Source: Planctomycetota bacterium
GTDB lineage: Bacteria > Planctomycetota > Brocadiia > Brocadiales > Bathyanammoxibiaceae
NCBI GenBank assembly: GCA_023261505.1
Contig: JAHFOV010000002.1
Location: 14,136-78,135 of the forward strand
Length of the DNA stretch: 64,000 nt
Direction: 5' to 3'
Part shown: positions 150 through 49,939 of the stretch, piece by piece
Position numbering within the stretch: the first letter of the stretch is position 1
How the letters are laid out: each line of letters starts with the position of its first letter
Program-made: the position numbers and the translations under genes
Notes under the pieces: model-generated
Seen by the model: the letters and a program-made list of their open reading frames with translations, nothing else
Database searches by the model: none
Told to the model about the DNA's origin: nothing

Positions 150-1286
150 ATGTCTCCCAAAATAAAAAATCTCCTCCCCCCAGGTAATTACTTCTTTGAA
201 GGCAATCAGGCCTGTGCTGAGGCGGCGCTTGCGGCCGGGTGCAGGTTCTTCGCAGGCTATCCTATCTCCCCGTCTAGTGAGATACTTGAGAGGCTCTCCT
301 GGCGGCTCCCAGAGGTGGGAGGGGTGTTCATCCAGATGGAGGATGAGATCGCCTCCATTGCGGCAGTAATCGGGGCGGTGTGGGCAGGGGCTAAGGCAAT
401 GACGGCCACTAGCGGGCCGGGCCTCAGCCTAATGCTAGAAAATATTGGCTACGCTATCATTACGGAGACTCCCTGCGTCGTAGTCGACGTCCAGAGGGCC
501 GGCCCTTCCACAGGACAGGCTACCAGACCCTACGATGGGGATATTATGCAGGTCAAGTGGGGTTCAAGTGGGGATTATCAGATTATTGCCCTCGCCCCCT
601 GGTCTGTTCAGGAGATGTACGACCTCACCATTCAGGCCTTCAACCTGGCAGAACTATATCGGGTGCCTGTCTTTGTTATGGGTGATGCGGCCTTGGCCCA
701 CCTGAGGGAGAGTTGCCGTATTCCCGAAGAGGTGGAGATAGTGGGGCGTAAAAAGGCAAGCGGCGTTGCTCATTTTGGGACCGATGAGCTTTCTGGTGTA
801 CCCCCAATGGCCAGCTTCGGAGAGGGGGAGGGGTTAATTATCACTGGTTCCACGCACGATGCCCTCGGCTACCGCAGAACCCAGGACTCCGATATACAAC
901 AAAAATTAGTGAACAGGCTTAACGAGAAGATTCTTTCTAACGTGGGCGAGATTATAGAAACAGAGGAATATTTCTTGGAAGGGGCCGATGTGGCGGTGGT
1001 CGCTTATGGGATAGTGGCCAGGGCAGCCCTGGCCGCAGTCAAGGAGGCCCGCCTGAGGGGGATAAAGATAGGATTGCTCAGGCTCAAGACCCTCTGGCCC
1101 TTCCCCGAGGAAAAAATAAGAGCCTTAGAAGCCAAAAAGATTGTAGTCCCCGAGCTTAACCGGGGTCAACTAGTGCGGGAGGTAGAGAGGGTGGCACAGG
1201 CAGAAGTAATATCTGTGAACAGGGTGGACGGAGAGATTATGAGGCCGGGGGAAATCGTGGAGGCGATAAAAGGGGTTAGGGACTAG
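150..1286 (+). CDS. 2-oxoacid:ferredoxin oxidoreductase, alpha subunit
   Basis: 378-aa ORF. 'GNQACAEAALAAGCRFFAGYPISPSSEI' and 'TATSGPGLSLMLE' are OFOR alpha signatures. Beta and gamma genes follow. Confidence 0.85.
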   Translation: MSPKIKNLLPPGNYFFEGNQACAEAALAAGCRFFAGYPISPSSEILERLSWRLPEVGGVFIQMEDEIASIAAVIGAVWAGAKAMTATSGPGLSLMLENIGYAIITETPCVVVDVQRAGPSTGQATRPYDGDIMQVKWGSSGDYQIIALAPWSVQEMYDLTIQAFNLAELYRVPVFVMGDAALAHLRESCRIPEEVEIVGRKKASGVAHFGTDELSGVPPMASFGEGEGLIITGSTHDALGYRRTQDSDIQQKLVNRLNEKILSNVGEIIETEEYFLEGADVAVVAYGIVARAALAAVKEARLRGIKIGLLRLKTLWPFPEEKIRALEAKKIVVPELNRGQLVREVERVAQAEVISVNRVDGEIMRPGEIVEAIKGVRD

Positions 1287-1322
1287 GGATTAGGGGTTAG
1301 TAGAAAAGATGAAGAGAGCGGA

Positions 1323-2120
1323 ATGAGTGAAAAGAAGGGAAAGGAAATGGAAGCCACCTGGAAAAAATACCTAAGAAAAGAGACCCTGCCCCTACCATTT
1401 TGCCCGGGCTGTGGGCATGGGATAGTGCTTTCTGCTATCCTTAGGGCCATTGAGGCTTCAGGGATAGATATAAAGGACATGCTCTTTGTCTCGGGGATAG
1501 GCTGTGCTGGCTGGATTCCAAGTCCACACATAAGGGCTGATACCATGCACGTTACCCATGGTCGCCCCATAGCCTTTGCCACAGGGGCCAAACTCTTTAA
1601 CCCCAGGCTTAAGGTCATGGTAGTGAGTGGTGACGGAGACCTGGCCTCCATCGGTGGAAATCACCTTATTCATGCGGCAAGGCGGGATATTGATATGGTG
1701 GTGGTGTGTGCCAACAATGAGATATACGGTATGACTGGCGGGCAGGTCTCCCCCACTACCGGACTAGGAGTCAAGACGACAACGACGTTAGCGGGGAATA
1801 TAGAGCCACCACTAGATTTATGTAAGCTGGTGGAGGCGGCCGGGGCAAGCTATGTGGCGAGGTCAACTGTCTTTCATCTGGAACACCTTATTAGTCTTCT
1901 TAAAAGGGCACTAAATCTTAAGGGCTTTTCATTTATAGACGCCTTATCGCCATGCCCTACACAGTATGGAAGGCGGAACCTCTACGCCTCAGCAGCGGAA
2001 CAGTTAAAAGACCTGGAGAAGAGGTGCATCTTGCTGCAAGAGGCCAGCGCTGCACCTCCGGAGACGCTGAAGGATAAGGTTATCATAGGAGAGTTTGTCC
2101 TTAGAGACAGTAAGCAGTAG
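1323..2120 (+). CDS. 2-oxoacid:ferredoxin oxidoreductase, beta (TPP-binding) subunit
   Basis: 'FCPGCGHG' cluster cysteines, 'SGIGC' and the 'VVSGDGDLASIGGNH' TPP motif. Confidence 0.85.
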   Translation: MSEKKGKEMEATWKKYLRKETLPLPFCPGCGHGIVLSAILRAIEASGIDIKDMLFVSGIGCAGWIPSPHIRADTMHVTHGRPIAFATGAKLFNPRLKVMVVSGDGDLASIGGNHLIHAARRDIDMVVVCANNEIYGMTGGQVSPTTGLGVKTTTTLAGNIEPPLDLCKLVEAAGASYVARSTVFHLEHLISLLKRALNLKGFSFIDALSPCPTQYGRRNLYASAAEQLKDLEKRCILLQEASAAPPETLKDKVIIGEFVLRDSKQ

Positions 2121-2200
2121 GTAGTACGCAGTAAGCAGAAAACCCTAGCTTTCCATTTTTACTCCATGGTGCCTAGCCGCTACTGCTTAGTGCTTACTGC
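2109..2200. repeat. family E heptamer-periodic inverted repeat (AGTAnGC)n ... (GCnTACT)n
   Basis: Left arm 'agtaagcagtaggtagtacgcagtaagcag' and right arm 'gctactgcttagtgcttactgc'. Spans the stop codon of the beta subunit. Confidence 0.75.
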
Positions 2201-2218
2201 CCTGTGTTTCTTAAGTAT

Positions 2219-2767
2219 ATGAACGACACAAAAAAGGAGATTAGGATAGCAGGCCTTGGCGGCCAGGGGGTGGTCTTTGCGGCCCAGTTATTGGGTAGGG
2301 CAGGGGTCCTTGAGGGATGGTTTGTCTCTCAGTCCAGTTTCTACGGCCCGGAGTCAAGGGGCACCCTTTGTTATGCGGATGTTATCCTCTCCAGGGAATC
2401 TATAGACTTTCCCTTTGTGACAAGACTTGATATATTAATAGCTTTAAGTCAGGAGGGATACGATAGATTTGCAAAAGATACTGTAGGGTGCACCTTCTTT
2501 GATACAGGGCGGGTAAAACCTGACCTTTCTTTAAAGATGGAGCATTTTTCTGTAACGGCTGAGGAGATGGCACAGAAGGAGTTGGGAAAAAAGATGGCAG
2601 CAAACTTGATAAGCATTGCGGCCTGTTGTGCAAAAACAGGAATAATCTCGAAGGAATTCCTGATAAAGGCTCTGCAAGAGTTAATAGAGGGATCTCAGAG
2701 GCCTGTTAATATTAAGGCCCTGGAACTGGGCTGGGAGTTGGGAATAAAGGCGGTGGCCCATGTTTGA
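2219..2767 (+). CDS. 2-oxoacid:ferredoxin oxidoreductase, gamma subunit
   Basis: 'IRIAGLGGQGV' gamma-subunit motif. The ATG at 2219 is preferred over the GTG at 2204 given in the ORF track. Confidence 0.8.
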   Translation: MNDTKKEIRIAGLGGQGVVFAAQLLGRAGVLEGWFVSQSSFYGPESRGTLCYADVILSRESIDFPFVTRLDILIALSQEGYDRFAKDTVGCTFFDTGRVKPDLSLKMEHFSVTAEEMAQKELGKKMAANLISIAACCAKTGIISKEFLIKALQELIEGSQRPVNIKALELGWELGIKAVAHV

Positions 2768-4091
2768 GAAATTTCCTTTGATAAAGGTAAAGCCTCCGGG
2801 ACCGGAGGCCAGGGTTCTACTAGAAAAGGATGCAAAATATATCTCGCCGTCCTCGAGCAGGGCCTATCCACTAGTGGTTAAGCGTGCCCAGGGGGCCATG
2901 GTGGAGGATGTGGACGGGAATCGTTATCTGGATTTTACTGCTGGTGTGGCAGTTACTAACACATGCCATTGTTCTCCTGAGGTGGTGAAGGCAATCTGCG
3001 ACCAGGCGAGGGAACTTTTGCACATGTCCGGCGCAGATTTCTTTAATCCATTACAGATAGAATTGGCCGAAAAACTTAGCGAACTTTGCCCTAGCCCATC
3101 TCCTAAGCGGGTATTCTTTAGTAACTCGGGGGCAGAGTCTGTCGAGGCTGCCATAAAGCTAGTCAGACACCGTACAGGGCGTCCTTACATCATTGCCTTT
3201 ACTGGCGCCTTTCATGGGCGTACCATGGGTGCGCTCTCCATTACTGCAAGCAGGCCCATACACAAGAAGGGTTTCTCACCGCTGGTTCCTGGAGTAATCC
3301 ATGTCCCTTATGCCTACTGCTACCGATGCCCTTATGGGGTAGCTCACCCAAGGGAGGAACTGGCCTGCGTAGAGTGGATAGAGGAAGAATTATTTAAAAC
3401 CTATGTGCCACCTGAAGAGGTGGCTGCAGTATTTGTTGAACCTATCCAGGGGGAAGGGGGTTACATAGTCCCACCAAAGGCCTTTCTGAAGGATTTGTCA
3501 GACTTATGCAGGAGGTATGGTATCCTTCTTGTGGCTGACGAGGTGCAATCGGGGATGGGCAGAACTGGGAAGATGTTTGCTATTGAGCACTTTGAGGTAG
3601 AACCGGATGTAATATGCCTGGCCAAGGGTATTGCCTCGGGACTGCCTCTAGGGGCGACCATAGCCCGGCAGGAATTGATGGAATGGCCCCCCGGTTCTCA
3701 TGCTAGCACCTTTGGGGGGAACCCCGTGAGCTGTAAAGCGGCCCTAGCTACACTGGAACTCTTGAAGGGTGGTTTAGTGGCCAATGCGGCAGTTGTGGGA
3801 GATTATCTCTTGAAGGAATTGGAAGGTCTTTACAATAATCATCCAATCATGGGCGAGGTGAGGGGCAAGGGGTTAATGATTGGTATAGAACTGGTAAAGG
3901 ACAGGGATACCAAAGAAAGGGCCTCAGAGGAAAGGGATAAGATTGTGCAGAGGGCCTTTGAGAAGGGGCTTCTCCTATTAGGTTGTGGCAAGAACTCTAT
4001 CCGTTTCGCACCACCCCTGATTATCACCAAAAAGGATGCGGATACTGCGTTAAATATCCTTGAAGAGGTGCTGAGGGAAATAGAGGGATGA
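2760..4091 (+). CDS. class III (GabT-like) PLP aminotransferase
   Basis: 'SNSGAESVEAAIKL', 'DEVQSGMGRTGKMFA' and the PLP-lysine context 'LAKGIASGLPLGA'. The start overlaps the gamma-subunit stop (ATGTTTGA). Confidence 0.85.
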   Translation: MFEKFPLIKVKPPGPEARVLLEKDAKYISPSSSRAYPLVVKRAQGAMVEDVDGNRYLDFTAGVAVTNTCHCSPEVVKAICDQARELLHMSGADFFNPLQIELAEKLSELCPSPSPKRVFFSNSGAESVEAAIKLVRHRTGRPYIIAFTGAFHGRTMGALSITASRPIHKKGFSPLVPGVIHVPYAYCYRCPYGVAHPREELACVEWIEEELFKTYVPPEEVAAVFVEPIQGEGGYIVPPKAFLKDLSDLCRRYGILLVADEVQSGMGRTGKMFAIEHFEVEPDVICLAKGIASGLPLGATIARQELMEWPPGSHASTFGGNPVSCKAALATLELLKGGLVANAAVVGDYLLKELEGLYNNHPIMGEVRGKGLMIGIELVKDRDTKERASEERDKIVQRAFEKGLLLLGCGKNSIRFAPPLIITKKDADTALNILEEVLREIEG

Positions 4092-4702
4092 GAAGTTATT
4101 TCTCTAATAAATACAAACTATCTCTTTTGCTTCTCTGTCTTTTCTTATTCTTAGGGGCTGTGGAGCCTGAGGAGGGTCTCTTTGAGAAAATGGTTATAGA
4201 CAAACTTACCTCTCTGGAATCCAGCCTTAAGGAATTGACCAATAGAGTAGAAGATATAGAACGACGGCTGTCAAGGGTAGAAAAGAACCTCATTGCTGTA
4301 AGGGCCCCCAGCCCCGTCGCTCCCCTCACTTCGCAAGGGGAGGGGGCTACTGAACCTTCGTCAGGAATGACTGTGCCACCTCAGGAGCCGCCTAAGAAAA
4401 GACTTAAGTCCTCAGTTCCTAAGGAGAAAGAGATAGCTGATGGATTGAAAGTTGTAGATGTTGACTACTATGGCACAGGGAAGAATACCTTTTTTAAGGG
4501 AGAAATAGAAAATAACACGGGGGATGACATTGTATACGCCTTATTCAAGATAGAGGTGTATGGGGAGCAGGGAGATTTGCTGGGCATTGAGTCCTTTGAA
4601 GTCAAGGATATAAAAAGGGCATGGCCTAAGAAGTTTACATTGACTATATATCATGTTGAGGATGACACTATAGCTGATTACTCAATTAAGCGGCTCAAAT
4701 GA
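4088..4702 (+). CDS. hypothetical membrane-anchored coiled-coil protein
   Basis: Hydrophobic N-terminus 'LSLLLLCLFLFLGA', a heptad-like segment and a Pro-rich linker. ATGA overlap with the upstream gene. I recognise no family. Confidence 0.5.
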   Translation: MRSYFSNKYKLSLLLLCLFLFLGAVEPEEGLFEKMVIDKLTSLESSLKELTNRVEDIERRLSRVEKNLIAVRAPSPVAPLTSQGEGATEPSSGMTVPPQEPPKKRLKSSVPKEKEIADGLKVVDVDYYGTGKNTFFKGEIENNTGDDIVYALFKIEVYGEQGDLLGIESFEVKDIKRAWPKKFTLTIYHVEDDTIADYSIKRLK

Positions 4703-40782: not shown

Positions 40783-42195
40783 ATGTTACGTTTTAATGAA
40801 CGCAGACGCAGCCTGGAACAGGATGACTATAGATTTGAACTCCAGGATGTAAAGGAGCCCAATCTCTATAGGGATATGTTCTCTTATGGGCAGATACCTA
40901 AAATACCTTTTAACTACCGCCTTAGTCCTATGGACCCTCCAGAGAATATATGGATTACTGACACTACCTTCCGCGATGGACAGCAGTCAAGGCCTCCTTT
41001 CACCGTAAAGCAGATTGTTGACCTCTATGACCTTCTACACCAACTAGGGGGAAAACAAGGGCTCATAAGGCAGTGCGAATTCTTCCTTTACACTGACAAG
41101 GACAAGGAGGCTGTTGTTAAATGTCTCGAGAGGGGTTACAAATATCCAGAAGTTACTGGGTGGATAAGGGCCAACAAAAATGATTTTAAACTAGTGAAAG
41201 AAATGGGGCTGAAGGAGACAGGGATCCTCACCTCTGCCTCTGATTACCATATTTTCTACAAGCTGGGTAAGACCCGCCGCCAGGCCCTGGAGAGTTACCT
41301 GGACATTGTGAGGGCAGCCTTGGAAGTAGGCATCATCCCTCGCTGCCACTTTGAGGATATTACCAGGGCAGACTTTTATGGATTTGTAGTCCCCTTTGCC
41401 CAGGAACTAATGAAACTTTCAGAAGAGAGTAAGATACCAATAAAAATACGTGCCTGTGACACAATGGGCTACGGAGTTGGCTATCCCGGTGCTATGCTAC
41501 CTAGGAGCGTACCTGGTATAGTTTATGGCCTCAGCCATTTTGCTAAGGTACCTCCCCAAAACCTTGAATGGCATGGCCACAACGATTTCTATAAGGCGGT
41601 CTCTAATGCTACCACCGCCTGGCTTTATGGCTGTAGTGGTGCTAACGGCACAATACTTGGTATTGGTGAGCGTACTGGAAACACCCCCTTAGAGGCCCTT
41701 GTTATTGAATATATGGCTTTAAGGGGTGACGATAGCATTGATACGACTATTATTACCGATATAGCAAATTACTTCAGAAAAAAGATAGGTTGCGAGATTC
41801 CACCCAATCAACCCTTGGTGGGGTCCCACTTTAATGTAACCCTAGCTGGCATACATCTGGATGGCCTTCTCAAGAATGAAGAAATATATAACATCTTTGA
41901 TACCAGGAAGCTGCTCAAGATACCCCCAGGGGTAGCGGTCAACGACAAATCCGGGGTAGCTGGGATCGTTCACTGGATAAAGGTCAACCTTAATGTCCAG
42001 AGGGAAGATTTAACTAAGTCCCATCCTGGCATTATAAGGATAAAAGATTGGGTAATGGAACAGTATGCCAAAGGCAGGATAACGGTTATATCTGACGAAG
42101 AGATGATGGAGCAGGTCAAAAAGCACCTACCAGAACTTTTTGAATCGCCTCGGGAGGCTAGCGAGAGCCTTGAGACTGTACGAACACCAGGCTAG
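40783..42195 (+). CDS. HMGL-like/DRE-TIM acyl-CoA condensing enzyme (Re-citrate synthase / homocitrate synthase family)
   Basis: 'WITDTTFRDGQQS' and 'EWHGHNDFYKAVSN' metal-ligand motifs. TCA-gene context favours Re-citrate synthase, but substrate cannot be assigned from sequence alone. Confidence 0.7.
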   Translation: MLRFNERRRSLEQDDYRFELQDVKEPNLYRDMFSYGQIPKIPFNYRLSPMDPPENIWITDTTFRDGQQSRPPFTVKQIVDLYDLLHQLGGKQGLIRQCEFFLYTDKDKEAVVKCLERGYKYPEVTGWIRANKNDFKLVKEMGLKETGILTSASDYHIFYKLGKTRRQALESYLDIVRAALEVGIIPRCHFEDITRADFYGFVVPFAQELMKLSEESKIPIKIRACDTMGYGVGYPGAMLPRSVPGIVYGLSHFAKVPPQNLEWHGHNDFYKAVSNATTAWLYGCSGANGTILGIGERTGNTPLEALVIEYMALRGDDSIDTTIITDIANYFRKKIGCEIPPNQPLVGSHFNVTLAGIHLDGLLKNEEIYNIFDTRKLLKIPPGVAVNDKSGVAGIVHWIKVNLNVQREDLTKSHPGIIRIKDWVMEQYAKGRITVISDEEMMEQVKKHLPELFESPREASESLETVRTPG

Positions 42196-43336
42196 GGAGA
42201 TATTACAAGGCTACGTCACTTGTATACCTAAAAGCAGCACCATATTCAAACCTGAAGAGGCAGAGGAGGCTTTCCTTAAGCTTGGTCAGCCCAGGGCAGT
42301 GATAAAGGCCCAGGTATTGACAGGGGGTAGGGGTAAGGCTGGGGGCGTGAAGATAGTAAATAGTCCGGCAGAGGCAAAGGATTTTGCTAAAAGGCTGCTG
42401 GGCTCAAGATTAGTAACGCCTCAAACCACACCAGAAGGAGAGGAAGTTAAGGCGCTACTCTTCCAGGAAGTCATCTCTATCCAGCGGGAATTGTATCTAG
42501 CCTTTCTCATTGACAGGCAGAGGGCATGTTCTTTGCTTGTGGGGTGTGGAGAAGGGGGTGTAGAAATAGAAGAACTGGCCAGGAAAGCCCCAGAAAAGGT
42601 CTTAAAGGATCCCTGGGATAGCTTGCAAGGTTTGCTCCCCTTCCAGGCCAGAAGGACAGCCTACTTTATGGGCTTATCAGGTTCTTATCTCAAAGAAGCA
42701 GCCAGCTTGATACTGGGCCTTTCAAGGGCTTTTATTGAAAAGGAACTCACTCTTCTAGAAATTAACCCCCTGGCCGTCACCTCTGAAGGGTCTTTGTCTA
42801 TATTGGATGTTAAAGCTAATTTTGATGACAACGCCTTTTTTCGCCATCAGGAGATGGTAGCCATAAGGCCCAGGGCAGAGGAATCTCTGGAGGCCCTTGC
42901 CTCCAGCTTTGGTTTGAGCTATGTGGGGTTAGAGGGGAATATAGGGTGCCTGGTGAATGGAGCGGGACTTGCCATGGCTACTAATGACATTATCAGGGTC
43001 TGCGGGGGTAAGCCGGCTAATTTTCTTGACGTAGGTGGAGACGCCTCTACTGAAAGAGTGACCCAGGCTTTCAGTATCTTGCTGCGGGACCCAAGGCTGA
43101 GGGCAGTCTTAGTAAATATTTTTGGTGGTATAACTCGTTGTGATACCATTGCTAAGGCAATCCTGGAGGTCTTAAAGGATACACCTCTCCGTATTCCTAT
43201 GATACTAAGGATGGAAGGAACTAATGCCTTAGAAGCAAGGAAAATGCTAGAGGGTTCTGGTCTTCCATTTCGCTTTTCCAGGGAAATGAAAGAAGCAACC
43301 TTACTGGCAATAGAAGCTGCTGAAATAAAAGAATAA
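42170..43336 (+). CDS. sucC: succinyl-CoA synthetase (ADP-forming) beta subunit
   Basis: The TTG at 42170 gives a canonical 'MRLYEHQAREIL' N-terminus (the ORF-track start is TTG 42140). 'KAQVLTGGRGKAGGVK' and 'NIFGGITRCD'. Confidence 0.85.
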   Translation: MRLYEHQAREILQGYVTCIPKSSTIFKPEEAEEAFLKLGQPRAVIKAQVLTGGRGKAGGVKIVNSPAEAKDFAKRLLGSRLVTPQTTPEGEEVKALLFQEVISIQRELYLAFLIDRQRACSLLVGCGEGGVEIEELARKAPEKVLKDPWDSLQGLLPFQARRTAYFMGLSGSYLKEAASLILGLSRAFIEKELTLLEINPLAVTSEGSLSILDVKANFDDNAFFRHQEMVAIRPRAEESLEALASSFGLSYVGLEGNIGCLVNGAGLAMATNDIIRVCGGKPANFLDVGGDASTERVTQAFSILLRDPRLRAVLVNIFGGITRCDTIAKAILEVLKDTPLRIPMILRMEGTNALEARKMLEGSGLPFRFSREMKEATLLAIEAAEIKE

Positions 43337-44606: not shown

Positions 44607-45491
44607 ATGCAAATCGATCGCAACACGAGGGTCATCTGCCAGGGCATGACAGGGACGGCAGGGAGCTTCCATACCCGCCTTATGAAGGAGTATGGAACAA
44701 AAATAGTGGCTGGGGTTACACCTGGAAAGGGGGGTACCTTCCATGAAGGGATACCAGTTTACGATACAGTTCTGGAAGCTGCTAAAAAAACAGACGCCGA
44801 GGCCAGTGTAATATTTGTCCCTGCCCCTTTTGCCCCTGATGCCATAATGGAGGCGGTGGAGGCTGGCCTTCGCCTTGTAGTATGTATTACAGAGGGCATT
44901 CCGGTCCATGACATGGTCAGGGTTAAGAGATACTTAGCTGAAAGGAACGCTTATCTCATCGGCCCCAACTGCCCGGGAATCACAGTGCCCGGGCAAGCCA
45001 AAATAGGTATAATGCCTGGCTATATACATACCCCTGGTATAGTGGGTGTGGTCTCACGCAGTGGTACCCTTACTTATGAGGTAGTATGGCAGCTAACACA
45101 GCGTGGCATAGGCCAGTCTACCTGTATTGGTATAGGAGGTGACCCAATCCTGGGAATGAGCTTTGTAGACGTCCTGAGGCTCTTTGAAGAGGATAGCGAA
45201 ACCCACGCCATTATCCTCATAGGAGAGATAGGGGGCGTTATGGAAGAAGAGGCAGCTAGCTACATCCGATCCGCCGTAAAAAAACCCGTAATCAGTTTTA
45301 TTGCTGGCAGAAATGCCCCCAGGGGGAAGCGAATGGGCCATGCCGGGGCAATAATAGAAGGAGGAATGGGTACATGGCAGAGCAAGGCAGAGGCCCTAAA
45401 AGAAGCAGGAGTTCACGTGATTGATAACCCCGCTGAGGTAGGCGTTAAAGTATGGACATTATTTAGAGAAACTGGGCTTATAAAAGTTTAG
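44607..45491 (+). CDS. sucD: succinyl-CoA synthetase alpha subunit
   Basis: '[14 protein letters not shown]', 'SRSGTLTYE' and the phosphohistidine loop 'MGHAGAII'. Confidence 0.9.
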
Positions 45492-46762: not shown

Positions 46763-47512
46763 ATGGAAGACACTATGCGTTTCAAGCGCTTCCTGAAGGA
46801 AGAGAACCTGCCCACCCCATGGTGTCCGGGCTGTGGTAACGGCCAGATTCTTAAGTCAGCATGCCAGGCCTTTGAAGAACTCAATTTTGATAAGCGACAG
46901 GTAGTCATCGTCTCTGGCATAGGATGCGCGGGCAGGAGCGCTGGTTTCTTTGACATGGACTCAGTCCATACTGCCCACGGTAGGGCTATCCCTGTTGCTG
47001 AGGGTATAAAAACCGCCAATGAGAACCTGAAAGTTGTTGTACTGAGCGGAGACGGAGATCTACTGGGCATAGGTGGCAACCATCTCCTTCATGCCACAAG
47101 GCGAAATACCCCCATCTCTATTATCTGCTACTCCAACGAGATATACGGTATGACCGGTGGCCAGGTCTCTCCCACTACCAGACTAAATACCAAGACCGTC
47201 ACCACGCCCGAAGGCAACAAAGACTGCCCTGTCAACGTTCAAGCTATTATCAAGGCCCACAACTGCTTCTATGCAAGAAGTACTACCTTTCATCTAGCAC
47301 ACCTTAAAAAAAGCATTATTGAGGCACTGAGACACCCCGGTCTTTCCTTTGTAGATGTTATATGCCAGTGCATCGTCAATAACGGTCGCCGCGTAGGGTT
47401 CAAAGACGCTTTTGAGATGCTTATGTACTATAAGAACAATTATAAAATTAACGACAATACCGAACTTCTAAAAGAGAACGAGATAGGAATAACCCGATGG
47501 ACTTCAGCGTAG
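46763..47512 (+). CDS. 2-oxoacid:ferredoxin oxidoreductase beta (TPP) subunit
   Basis: 'WCPGCGNG', 'SGIGC' and 'VLSGDGDLLGIGGNH'. Confidence 0.85.
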   Translation: MEDTMRFKRFLKEENLPTPWCPGCGNGQILKSACQAFEELNFDKRQVVIVSGIGCAGRSAGFFDMDSVHTAHGRAIPVAEGIKTANENLKVVVLSGDGDLLGIGGNHLLHATRRNTPISIICYSNEIYGMTGGQVSPTTRLNTKTVTTPEGNKDCPVNVQAIIKAHNCFYARSTTFHLAHLKKSIIEALRHPGLSFVDVICQCIVNNGRRVGFKDAFEMLMYYKNNYKINDNTELLKENEIGITRWTSA

Positions 47513-48480
47513 AGGTACTAAAAGAAAAAGATATAGAAGCCACACTGAACCTCTTTTATGAGAGCATTGAGGAAATCCACCCTGCCCGCCCCAAGGAGGA
47601 CATGCAGCACTTCAAGGAAGGCTACACTGTTGCAAAACTTCGTAAAAGACTGTCCAATGAAAATTGTGTTTACCTGGTAGCCAAGGAGAAAGAAAAGGTC
47701 GTAGGGTACGTTTTTGCTTGGCTAACCGAAGGCGTGGGAGACATCCACTGGTTTGCCATTGACAAGAATTATAGAGGCAAGGGTTACGGTCACCAAATCC
47801 TGGAAAGAACCTTAAGGGAATTCCAGAGGAAAGGATGCCACGAGGGCAGGGTGTTTATCTACCCTCAAGATACCCCTGCCTATAGACTATTGGAACACCT
47901 GGGCTTCTTCCAGAAGGCCTACATAGAGGAGAAATTCTTTGGCATAGACCTTATCCTTATGGTAAAAGTCTTAGCCAAACCTCTCAGGCCGATAGTAAAA
48001 AGGATAATCCTGGCAGGAGAGGCTGGCCAGGGTATCAAGCTTATGGCTCAAGCCCTGGCTAACATACTGGCTAAGATGGGCAAGGAGGTCACCCTGAATG
48101 TCCTCTACGATGCCACAGTAAGGGGAGGAGAAATTACTGCCGAACTTATCTTCTCGGATGAAAAGATAGAGACACCTTTCTTTGAGAAGGCTGACCTATG
48201 CCTGGAGCTAGCCAAATCGTCCAAGAGAACCTTTGCTGCCGAGAGACACATCCTGGAGGCCTCTATCCTCGAAAGAGTGGCAGAAGAAAGGATACCATTT
48301 GAAAAAGAGGCCATTGAGAAATTCGGCAGCCCCATCTTCATAAATATGATTGCTCTTGGTAGGCTCCTCAGGGATATTGGCATTCCAATTGATAAAGTAG
48401 ACTTTCGTGCCACCCTCCCAGCAAGATTTCTTGAAGAAAACGTAAAGGCAATAAAGTATGGGTACACTTATCAGGATTAA
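47497..48480 (+). CDS. fusion protein: GNAT N-acetyltransferase domain plus OFOR gamma subunit
   Basis: N-terminal half has 'VGYVFAW...WFAIDKNYRGKGYGHQILERTL' (GNAT motif A). C-terminal half has 'IILAGEAGQGIKLMAQALA' (gamma subunit). Confidence 0.7.
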   Translation: MDFSVEVLKEKDIEATLNLFYESIEEIHPARPKEDMQHFKEGYTVAKLRKRLSNENCVYLVAKEKEKVVGYVFAWLTEGVGDIHWFAIDKNYRGKGYGHQILERTLREFQRKGCHEGRVFIYPQDTPAYRLLEHLGFFQKAYIEEKFFGIDLILMVKVLAKPLRPIVKRIILAGEAGQGIKLMAQALANILAKMGKEVTLNVLYDATVRGGEITAELIFSDEKIETPFFEKADLCLELAKSSKRTFAAERHILEASILERVAEERIPFEKEAIEKFGSPIFINMIALGRLLRDIGIPIDKVDFRATLPARFLEENVKAIKYGYTYQD

Positions 48481-48524
48481 ATCTCATCTGACTTGTGGCA
48501 AGGGTCTTCGCGGAGCTTATAAAA

Positions 48525-49367
48525 ATGCGCCAGATAGAGGCTAGCACCATAACCCAAACCGTAGAAAAACTTTGTATAGATGCTAACTATTTCCTGGGAC
48601 AGGATGTCATTGATGCCCTGGAAAGGTCTCTTAAGACAGAAGAATTCTGTATCGGCCAGCGAATCATAAGAGACATCCTTGAAAATGCCAGAATAGCCCG
48701 CGAGGAACTTGCTCCCTTATGTCAGGATACTGGTTTCACGGTGGTCTTCGTAGAATTAGGCCAAGAGGTAGAAATTGTAGATGGTAATTTGAAAGAGGCT
48801 ATTACCAAAGGTGTAAGTCAGGGATACACTAAAGGCTATCTAAGGGCCTCAATTGTTAAAGACCCTTTAAAACGTATTAATACAAAAGATAATACTCCGC
48901 CCTTTATTCATATAGATGCAATACAAGGAAAGCAATTAAAACTTACCATCATGTGTAAAGGTTCGGGCTGTGAAAATATGAGCCGCCACATCATGCTTAC
49001 CCCAGCCCAGGGAAGAAAAGAGATTGTAGATTTTGTGGTGGAAACCGTTGTAAGAGGAGGTGGCAGACCTTGTCCTCCGCTAATTGTGGGAGTGGGTTTG
49101 GGAGGCACCTTCGAGTATTCCGCCTATATGGCAAAGAAAAGCCTTCTCAGGCCTGTGAGTTCCCACCATCCTGAACCACATATTAAGGAACTGGAAGAGG
49201 AGCTCTTTGAAAAGGTGAATAACACTGGCTTGGGTCCGCAGGCATGGGGTGGCAGGGCTACCGCCCTTGCAGTTCACGTGGAGACCTGTCCCACCCATAT
49301 CGCCAGCCTCCCTGTCGCAGTAAATATTGAGTGCCACTCACATCGTGTAAAAACAGTAACTTTATGA
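48525..49367 (+). CDS. class I fumarate hydratase (or tartrate dehydratase) alpha subunit
   Basis: 'CQDTGFTVVFVELGQ' and 'VGVGLGGT'. ATG at 48525, with an alternative GTG at 48495. Confidence 0.8.
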   Translation: MRQIEASTITQTVEKLCIDANYFLGQDVIDALERSLKTEEFCIGQRIIRDILENARIAREELAPLCQDTGFTVVFVELGQEVEIVDGNLKEAITKGVSQGYTKGYLRASIVKDPLKRINTKDNTPPFIHIDAIQGKQLKLTIMCKGSGCENMSRHIMLTPAQGRKEIVDFVVETVVRGGGRPCPPLIVGVGLGGTFEYSAYMAKKSLLRPVSSHHPEPHIKELEEELFEKVNNTGLGPQAWGGRATALAVHVETCPTHIASLPVAVNIECHSHRVKTVTL

Positions 49368-49939
49368 TGGAAAAAAACATCGTGTCAGAAGAAATTATAC
49401 ATATAAAGGCACCATTAGATGAAAAAACAGTTTTGAGCCTCAGGGCAGGCCAATTGGTACTTTTTGATGGAATCTTTTATACTGCCAGAGACGCTAGCCA
49501 TAAGCTGCTGATAGAACTTATAGAACAAGGCAAGCCCCTCCCTTTTGACCTCCAGGGACAGGTCATATATTATGTGGGCCCTACCCCTGCTAGACCCGGC
49601 AGGGTAATAGGCTCTGCGGGACCTACTACCAGCTCCCGCATGGATTCCTTCATGGAGCCGCTTTTACAAAGAGGATTAAAGGGTACCATAGGTAAAGGGA
49701 ATCGTTCCCAGGAAGTCATTGACCTTTTGAAGAAATACAAGGCCGTGCACTTTTCCAACATTGGAGGTGCAGCGGCCCTTATTGCCAAAAGCATAAAAAA
49801 ATGTGAAATGGTCGCCTTTGAAGACCTTGGTACAGAGGCCATTTACAGAATGGAGGTAAAGGACTTCTTCGCTGTAGTTGCCTACGACACCACGGGTAAT
49901 GACTTGTATATGGAAGCCATTAAAAGATACGGTCGCTAA
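49364..49939 (+). CDS. class I fumarate hydratase beta subunit
   Basis: 'GPTPARPGRVIGSAGPTTSSRMD' and 'GKGNRS'. The ATGA overlap with the alpha stop sets the start at 49364. Confidence 0.8.
   Translation: MMEKNIVSEEIIHIKAPLDEKTVLSLRAGQLVLFDGIFYTARDASHKLLIELIEQGKPLPFDLQGQVIYYVGPTPARPGRVIGSAGPTTSSRMDSFMEPLLQRGLKGTIGKGNRSQEVIDLLKKYKAVHFSNIGGAAALIAKSIKKCEMVAFEDLGTEAIYRMEVKDFFAVVAYDTTGNDLYMEAIKRYGR

Follow-up and report, generated by a model that had tools for sequence, protein, structure and literature searches.

A 64,000-nucleotide stretch of contig JAHFOV010000002.1, from a Planctomycetota bacterium of the Brocadiales (the whole analysed stretch is hereafter the window), contains two gene clusters for 2-oxoacid:ferredoxin oxidoreductases (OFORs). 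The last subunit gene of the second cluster encodes a fusion of a GNAT acyltransferase domain with the OFOR gamma subunit (Table 1). This fusion is genuine and old. It is conserved in many genomes, evolves under purifying selection and is not a one-off. We propose that the GNAT-gamma protein is the coenzyme A (CoA)-binding subunit, or domain III, of a delta-alpha-beta-gamma OFOR of the Oor/Kor type, whose most likely reaction is the interconversion of 2-oxoglutarate and succinyl-CoA in the tricarboxylic acid (TCA) branch of anammox bacteria. The complete GNAT domain, joined to the N-terminus of gamma through a linker of about eight residues, would act as an accessory module binding acyl-CoA (succinyl- or acetyl-CoA) beside the CoA-thioester site of the enzyme. 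Taken as a whole, this GNAT-acyl-CoA coupling is the best explanation we can offer, and we give it slightly better than an even chance of being right.

Both halves of the open reading frame (ORF) are recognised by Pfam models above their cut-offs. PF00583 (Acetyltransf_1) matches residues 43-137 (E 4.7e-15; 56.3 bits against a cut-off of 20.7), PF13673 and PF13508 score 45.4 against 23.6 and 43.6 against 27, and PF13302 also passes. PF01558 (POR) matches residues 176-323 over profile positions 1-172 of 173 (E 1.3e-17; 64.9 bits against 27.4). PF00583 and the three further GNAT models thus bear out the initial annotation, which had read the N-terminal half as a GNAT domain; the motif-A string that it quoted lies at residues 85-106 (nucleotides 47749-47814) and its gamma string at residues 170-188. 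An AlphaFold2 model built on an alignment of 80 homologues has a mean pLDDT of 88.2 and a pTM of 0.79 and comprises two compact domains. The linker lies between the last GNAT strand (residues 152-158) and the first gamma strand (167-175), and pLDDT falls to 75-79 in the blocks neighbouring it. In Foldseek searches, the GNAT half matches 8osp_A, PaiA (1tiq_A) and RimI at template-modelling (TM) scores, normalised by target, of 0.74-0.82, the best matches (8osp_A, 1tiq_A, 3f0a and 3fnc) reaching 0.78-0.82 with E-values down to 8e-12. The gamma half matches OorC-type gamma subunits (3g2e_C, 0.73; 8ys5_B, 0.73; 3on3_A, 0.71).

In the first OFOR cluster, the paralogous gamma is 182-187 residues long and matches PF01558 alone (87.5 bits), so the extension of the fusion amounts to about 140-145 residues. 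This agrees with the earlier statements that the fusion is some 140 residues longer than a normal gamma subunit and that the paralogue has no such extension. The start of the fusion ORF overlaps the 3' end of the beta-subunit gene by 16 nucleotides. An internal start at M36, with AAGGAGG two bases upstream, was rejected since residues 1-35 are conserved; M1 is present in 73 of the 80 aligned sequences, L19 in 74, F20 in 73 and E26 in 73.

Could the fusion be an artefact, with an error of sequencing or assembly joining two neighbouring genes, or else a recent local accident without function? The comparative data refute this reading, which we regard as scarcely credible. At E <= 1e-10 the fusion has a match in 90 of 132 genomes of the same class, and in 83 of these (a manual tally of the genome-search rows) the match is full-length and free of stops; the single-contig genomes G019, G020 and G044 are among them. 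A Logan contig of 1308 nucleotides from a second sample, X2, spans positions 47192-48499, across the junction, with 0 differences and 0 gaps. X2 comes from the same study as sample X1, and X1 is possibly the window's own source and hence not independent, which is all that was found in favour of an artefact. Moreover, the fusion also occurs in Aminicenantes and in a protein whose name assigns it to a Woesearchaeota archaeon, and its ratio of nonsynonymous to synonymous substitution rates (dN/dS) lies well below 1. The initial annotation's single gene, with no missed stop or frameshift, therefore stands on the second-sample contig and on the intact full-length orthologues.

How widespread the fusion is had been raised as a question by the same annotation, and the answer is that it is present in most genomes of the class and found in Aminicenantes as well. 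By family, the genomes with any match number 12 of 13 in f1, 2 of 2 in f2, 45 of 47 in f3, 25 of 28 in f4, 1 of 1 in f5 and 2 of 2 in f9, and none of the 31 genomes of f11 has a match at E <= 1e-10. A word-index search returned 158 relatives, and all 120 that were listed are full-length fusions of 323-401 residues at 47-100% identity, that is, the self-match at 100% and 119 other clusters, with 97-100% query cover and both domains. Their names are Brocadiales, Brocadia, Kuenenia, Scalindua or "gamma subunit/RimI". An exhaustive search of representatives, clustered at 50% identity, added some 16 full-length fusion clusters down to 33-35% identity, some named Aminicenantaceae and one the Woesearchaeota archaeon already mentioned. 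In a 201-genome sample of the class to which the Aminicenantes match belongs, the full-length fusion is present in 12 genomes and a fragment in 1, confined to a subgroup. In the ESM Atlas, a 77-member cluster carries both Pfam families, and the N-terminal half alone retrieves only generic GNAT clusters. Word-index searches for proteins of fewer than 179 residues related to GNAT residues 1-165 (E <= 1e-8), and for longer fused forms of 574-2000 residues (E <= 1e-10), found none, which in each case is weak evidence.

A GNAT-only copy akin to fusion residues 17-144, at 39% identity, lies at G022:C3:691824-692207 as a second copy in that genome; it has two in-frame TAA stops and may be a decayed duplicate. 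A contig from a metatranscriptome library covers positions 47617-47837 and leaves the rest of the ORF uncovered; DNA carry-over is possible, and the contig is not used as support. In the supplement of PMC8027424, none of five masses computed for fusion ORFs of several genomes is in the table, and a 44,438-Da "N-acetyltransferase domain-containing protein" listed there is unmatched by the fusion-ORF masses; we draw no conclusion from either. As an anammox marker for the outlying families, HZS_alpha (PF18582) was tried and set aside as not decisive, since it matches five of five genomes tried but also a Bacteroides control. The two large f9 genomes, G098 and G099, have 11 and 17 PF18582 matches in open frames of about 800-1700 residues, and the other three genomes tried have just 1-2 each.

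The conserved positions of the GNAT half suggest that its CoA site has been kept. In GNATs, the motif-A loop R/Q-x-x-G-x-G/A binds the pyrophosphate of acyl-CoA. This loop is retained in the fusion family, with R93 in 77 of the 80 sequences, G96 in 74 and G, A or S at position 98 in 74. Other conserved positions are W85 (80/80), C114 (79/80), Y122 (75/80), K40 (75/80), E26 (73/80) and H84 (67/80). Among 12 f1 orthologues, with usable dS in 22 of 66 pairs, the median dN/dS is 0.166 for the GNAT part and 0.094 for gamma, values by which the GNAT part is under purifying selection. Against the RimI model TIGR01575 the fusion scores 51.5 bits, below the cut-off of 86.4. The genome has four PF00583 matches only, and one of these, on contig C81, is a better RimI candidate at 77.4 bits, also below the cut-off.

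The gamma half likewise retains its glycine-rich loop, which follows the first strand and in which G174, Q178 and G179 are invariant and A176 and G177 are present in at least 90% of the 80 sequences; we take the G-x-x-G-Q-G loop of OFOR domain III to contact CoA. The gamma half scores below the cut-offs of the named equivalog models (NF006211, 34.3 against 239; NF006323, 33.6 against 235; NF006275 OorC, 21.8 against 216; TIGR02175, 20.7 against 81.1), and by these scores its assignment holds at family level only. A tree of gamma domains was built from 53 rows, of which 20 are fused, 32 are gamma-only (picked by length from the 150 listed) and 1 is the outgroup. The fused sequences and about 30 short unfused gammas of 150-176 residues, some named Woesearchaeota or "archaeon", form one clade (support 99/97), outside which falls the gamma subunit of the window's first cluster. 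The initial annotation was thus right to see a gamma subunit in the C-terminal half, as PF01558 confirms, and its word "standard" does not hold for a member of a divergent short-gamma clade far below the NCBIfam gamma equivalog cut-offs. Eighteen of the 20 fused rows fall in one group (91/97) together with two gamma-only rows, and the Aminicenantes and Woesearchaeota fusions are placed elsewhere with weak support. The fusion may have had one origin, with which the tree is compatible, or several, with which it is compatible too. Metagenome-contig scans with P0288 and P0138, aimed at archaeal loci where a separate GNAT gene might adjoin an unfused short gamma, confirmed no locus.

The partner enzyme is likely an Oor/Kor-like OFOR carrying out the 2-oxoglutarate-succinyl-CoA step, a reading that draws on gene context. 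The window has the order sucC, haem protein, sucD, delta, alpha, beta, GNAT-gamma, fumA-like and fumB-like, and a fumA-like gene lies downstream of the fusion gene in families f1 and f3. The closest solved relatives of alpha are the Pyrococcus furiosus alpha chain (1yd7) and Helicobacter pylori OorA (8ys5_A; E 3.7e-59 for 8ys5), and the best solved relative of beta is H. pylori OorB (8ys5_C; E 2.2e-51). Alpha scores below the NCBIfam equivalog cut-offs (NF007206, 268 against 579; NF006412, 333 against 411), as does beta (NF007207, 215 against 364), and we therefore use the designation Oor/Kor-like, the substrate being suggested by context. The interconversion of 2-oxoglutarate and succinyl-CoA is the likely reaction because sucCD and fumAB adjoin the OFOR genes here and sdhAB-like genes do so in Aminicenantes. 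In the Aminicenantes/Acidobacteria, the order delta-alpha-beta-GNAT-gamma is found in 8 of 8 loci, and genes for sdhA-like, sdhB-like, Rieske and cytochrome b proteins lie upstream of the OFOR in 6 of 8, the contig ending within cytochrome b in the other 2. From these contexts, the enzyme sits among genes of succinate, fumarate and succinyl-CoA metabolism in two phyla.

Table 1. Coordinates of the GNAT-gamma fusion, its parts and the surrounding genes in the window
Feature	Position	Strand	Basis
GNAT-gamma fusion ORF	47497..48480	+	327 residues + stop; ATG start; no internal stop
GNAT domain, residues 1-158	47497..47970	+	PF00583; DSSP strands E3-7 to E152-158; Foldseek GNAT matches
GNAT motif-A loop R93-G-K-G96-Y-G98 (predicted acyl-CoA pyrophosphate-binding)	47773..47790	+	80-sequence column counts
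L132, position of the usual GNAT general-acid Tyr	47890..47892	+	four residues before G136-F137; aligns to the YpeA Tyr
Inter-domain linker, residues 159-166	47971..47994	+	no helix or strand between E152-158 and E167-175
OFOR gamma / domain III module, residues 167-327	47995..48477	+	PF01558; Foldseek matches to OorC 3g2e and 8ys5_B
Glycine-rich loop G174-E-A-G-Q-G179, domain III	48016..48033	+	column conservation, 80 sequences
sucC (succinyl-CoA synthetase beta)	42140..43336	+	PF08442, PF00549
Two-domain Tll0287-type haem protein, 404 residues	43372..44586	+	two Tll0287-like (PF11845) domains, CxxCH motifs
sucD (succinyl-CoA synthetase alpha)	44607..45491	+	PF02629, PF00549
OFOR delta subunit, 73 residues	45513..45734	+	two 4Fe-4S motifs; Fer4 families, TIGR02179 PorD_KorD
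OFOR alpha subunit, 346 residues	45709..46749	+	PF01855 at 2.7e-57
OFOR beta subunit, 249 residues	46763..47512	+	PF02775
Class I fumarate hydratase alpha (fumA-like)	48495..49367	+	PF05681 at 1e-106
Fumarate hydratase beta (fumB-like)	49331..49939	+	PF05683
Unfused paralogous gamma, first OFOR cluster	2204/2219..2767	+	182-187 residues; PF01558 only, 87.5 bits

An orthologous alpha subunit (E <= 1e-90) is present in 84 of the 132 genomes, in exactly the same families as the fusion. Both are found in 80 genomes and neither in 40; alpha occurs alone in 4, and the fusion, or a remnant of it, occurs alone in 8. Most of these mismatches involve incomplete metagenome-assembled genomes. G005, G069 and G053, which are 94-100% complete, are without alpha, and in them the fusion is absent or reduced to a 55-residue remnant. 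The genes need not stand together. In families f1 and f4, sucCD-delta-alpha-beta-GNAT-gamma are found at one locus. In f3 (G019, G047), GNAT-gamma-fumA-fumB-apgM lies at one locus and delta-alpha-beta at another, the two being 1.6 Mb apart in G019 (G019:C1:2314000-2322500 and 3941000-3951000); the f3 delta-alpha-beta locus ends against a convergent gene, with no other gamma adjoining. In f9 (G099), beta-GNAT-gamma and sucCD-delta-alpha are on separate contigs, and in f2 (G001) the orthologous alpha is on a different contig from beta-GNAT-gamma.

Eight alpha matches contain one internal stop though the open frame is about full length (TGA in G065, G064 and G081; TAG in G015, G022, G024 and G025; TAA in G090), and these are probably alignments extending beyond the end of the gene. 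The haem-protein gene of the window, situated between sucC and sucD and upstream of the OFOR genes, likely belongs to one transcription unit with them. The Aminicenantes gene string is itself an unusual pairing of succinate dehydrogenase/fumarate reductase and bc-type components with an OFOR. The first OFOR cluster, within positions 150-4702 on the same strand, encodes an alpha subunit of 378 residues, a beta of 265 and a gamma of 187. It is followed, with stop/start overlaps, by a class-III aminotransferase (2760-4091) and then a 204-residue protein with no Pfam match, and this arrangement suggests that the first cluster encodes an amino-acid-linked 2-oxoacid enzyme.

Two lineages have lost the GNAT part by independent events, one at a rearrangement breakpoint and the other by internal deletion. 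In the single-contig genome G048, collinearity of the locus (G048:C1:1083000-1091500) with that of its congener G047 (93% nucleotide identity) begins only at about codon 146 of the fusion; before it, unrelated sequence takes the place of the 5' portion of the fusion gene. In G021 (locus G021:C68:10000-15500), about 268 nucleotides within the GNAT part are missing relative to G019. Each retains a 183-residue gamma ORF, beginning at a Met equivalent to M155 and followed by fumAB, and each keeps the orthologous alpha, with delta and beta also observed in G048. As two lineages have lost the GNAT part and kept gamma, it appears to be dispensable, which fits an accessory role, in which the module would modulate the enzyme without being required by it.

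These losses also bear on a structural explanation, by which the GNAT domain would be an assembly element for dimerisation or docking that offsets the short alpha and beta subunits and has no ligand role. Alpha and beta are indeed shorter than their paralogues in the first cluster and than H. pylori OorA and OorB (375 and 273 residues), and gamma-only members occur in the same short-gamma clade. However, GNAT-less gamma ORFs persist alongside orthologues of the other subunits in G048 and G021, archaeal relatives in the same gamma clade do without a GNAT, and the CoA loop is conserved, which a pure scaffold need not keep. We therefore consider a purely structural role improbable. A complex prediction for alpha, beta and gamma residues 166-327 against GNAT residues 1-165, made with alignments, scored 0.00, which says nothing either way.

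We interpret the GNAT part as an accessory acyl-CoA module because the loop is kept, the domain is under purifying selection, the usual tyrosine is mostly lacking and the domain has been lost twice. Coupling to the OFOR is further favoured by the short tether to the CoA-binding domain, and we infer that the GNAT would bind a CoA thioester close to the CoA site of domain III. Our preferred mechanism, to which about half of the confidence in the overall explanation belongs, is that of an active N-acyltransferase with non-canonical catalytic residues, fed by the local thioester pool. It is favoured because polar residues on the acceptor side are conserved, and the candidate catalytic residues, specific to the family, are H84, Y122 and the cluster E26/H28/H38/K40/Y43. 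The acylated amine would most plausibly be a lysine or an N-terminus, either in the OFOR itself or in a TCA enzyme close by, and acylation would tie the activity of the enzyme to the acyl-CoA pool. In a more specific version, which we consider unlikely, the fusion would serve prokaryotes as a dedicated succinyltransferase of proteins, or as another acyl-lysine writer, within an enzyme that makes or uses succinyl-CoA, and so be the covalent equivalent in bacteria of the KAT2A/alpha-KGDH arrangement. The initial annotation had likewise suggested product-coupled acylation from an N-terminal GNAT-gamma fusion in the second OFOR cluster; the architecture has held up, and the evidence on acylation points both ways.

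Several observations weigh against an active acyltransferase tied to a 2-oxoglutarate enzyme. Many GNATs use as general acid a tyrosine that precedes the terminal G-F, a residue common though not universal among active ones. In the fusion family it is missing from 77 of the 80 sequences, the column holding F in 52, L in 23, Y in 3 and C in 2, and the family profile shows "f" where YpeA has the aligned Tyr. A stand-alone relative, P0155 (30% identity), does have Tyr at this position. Among proteins of solved structure, the family profile has its best sequence match in YpeA (E 3.3e-12), itself uncharacterised, and no close stand-alone GNAT of known substrate was found. The GNAT part evolves about twice as fast as gamma and is thus the less tightly constrained of the two; as judged from G048 and G021, it is dispensable for keeping gamma in at least some lineages. 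Finally, alpha, beta and gamma are all under the NCBIfam equivalog cut-offs, and the 2-oxoglutarate assignment comes from gene context and family resemblance.

Some of the same observations would suit a non-catalytic sensor of acyl-CoA or CoA, in which thioester binding biases the opening and closing of domain III and gives allosteric feedback with no acyl transfer. A sensor would keep the CoA loop while dispensing with the canonical Tyr, and it could be lost, as a regulator would be, in G048 and G021. The linker to domain III is only about eight residues long, and the pTM of the model suggests a defined arrangement of the two domains. The polar residues of the acceptor side (E26, K40, H84 and Y122) are strongly conserved, however, with no obvious need for them in a sensor, and many active GNATs work without the Tyr. 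In its favour again, domain III of OFORs, according to a review of these enzymes, binds CoA and closes by about 7 Å on doing so (PMC13768988). We regard such a sensor as possible, with the balance of probability against it.

Among known systems, the closest to the partner enzyme are H. pylori OorDABC (8ys5/8ys6), a four-subunit 2-oxoglutarate:acceptor oxidoreductase, and related Kor/Oor enzymes, with the same set of delta (two [4Fe-4S] clusters), alpha, beta and gamma subunits. Alpha and beta match chains of 8ys5, the gamma half superposes on 8ys5_B and on Campylobacter jejuni OorC (3g2e), and the present locus shares with Oor/Kor enzymes a TCA-related gene context. It differs from OorDABC in the N-terminal GNAT of about 160 residues, in the shorter alpha and beta subunits and in a gamma that belongs to a separate short-gamma clade; its subunits fall below the NCBIfam equivalog cut-offs and its substrate is suggested by context. 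The stand-alone GNATs YpeA (2pdo, 4qus, 4qvt), PaiA (1tiq) and RimI (2cnm, 5isv) have the same fold and motif A, and YpeA also has the G-C pair found here at C114. However, identities to them are 14-23%, the Tyr of YpeA is F or L here, and here the domain is fused to an OFOR subunit.

Two further systems resemble the fusion in its possible mode of action or in its design. KAT2A (GCN5), coupled to the alpha-ketoglutarate dehydrogenase (alpha-KGDH) complex, reportedly acts as a histone succinyltransferase (Wang et al. 2017, Nature 552:273, as cited in PMC12372871), so that an enzyme of the GNAT superfamily stands near a 2-oxoglutarate-decarboxylating enzyme that makes succinyl-CoA and acylation draws on a local pool of the thioester. 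The likeness is not one of family, since the two GNATs are not orthologues; in eukaryotes the association is non-covalent and the partner a lipoamide-dependent dehydrogenase complex, whereas here the link is covalent and the enzyme a ferredoxin-dependent OFOR. Succinyl transfer by the fusion is a proposal. Protein acetyltransferases of the Pat/YfiQ type consist of a GNAT joined to a domain resembling NDP-forming acyl-CoA synthetases. They too fuse a GNAT to a second module of CoA-thioester metabolism, which is regulatory or ligand-binding, but the partner domain and the domain order differ, and Pat regulates as a protein on its own, whereas the fusion forms part of a metabolic enzyme. Reports of succinyltransferases from bacteria are rare according to PMC12372871, which also states that overexpression of ypeA, among others, changed global succinylation in Escherichia coli.

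In our literature searches, which did not extend to subscription journals, no description of a GNAT-bearing OFOR subunit was found. In the available text of the OFOR review, the reviewed domain repertoire (I-VII) contains no acyltransferase and the words GNAT and acetyltransferase are absent (PMC13768988). Lawson et al. discuss the anammox OFOR with no mention of a GNAT fusion in the part available (PMC8027424). The GNAT-gamma architecture is already visible in automatic annotations, among the JGI names.

In anaerobic carbon fixation, OFORs connect 2-oxoacids with CoA thioesters by way of ferredoxin, and anammox organisms are important both in wastewater treatment and in the nitrogen cycle worldwide. 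A GNAT domain on the mobile CoA-binding domain of such an enzyme, present in almost every genome of the anammox order and recurring in Aminicenantes, suggests that the 2-oxoglutarate/succinyl-CoA node is subject to a form of control not recognised so far, or to a side reaction. The case is experimentally convenient, with G048 and G021 providing natural GNAT-less controls, and one recombinant complex could address whether bacteria have writers of succinyl- or acetyl-lysine tied to the source of their thioester. Even if the GNAT domain is inert or merely regulatory, it would be a useful marker of a distinct OFOR subfamily whose alpha, beta and gamma subunits are short. Were the fusion a succinyltransferase, it would mark the OFOR and TCA enzymes close by according to the state of the succinyl-CoA pool, and would thereby determine in which direction, or at what flux, the branched TCA cycle of anammox bacteria runs.

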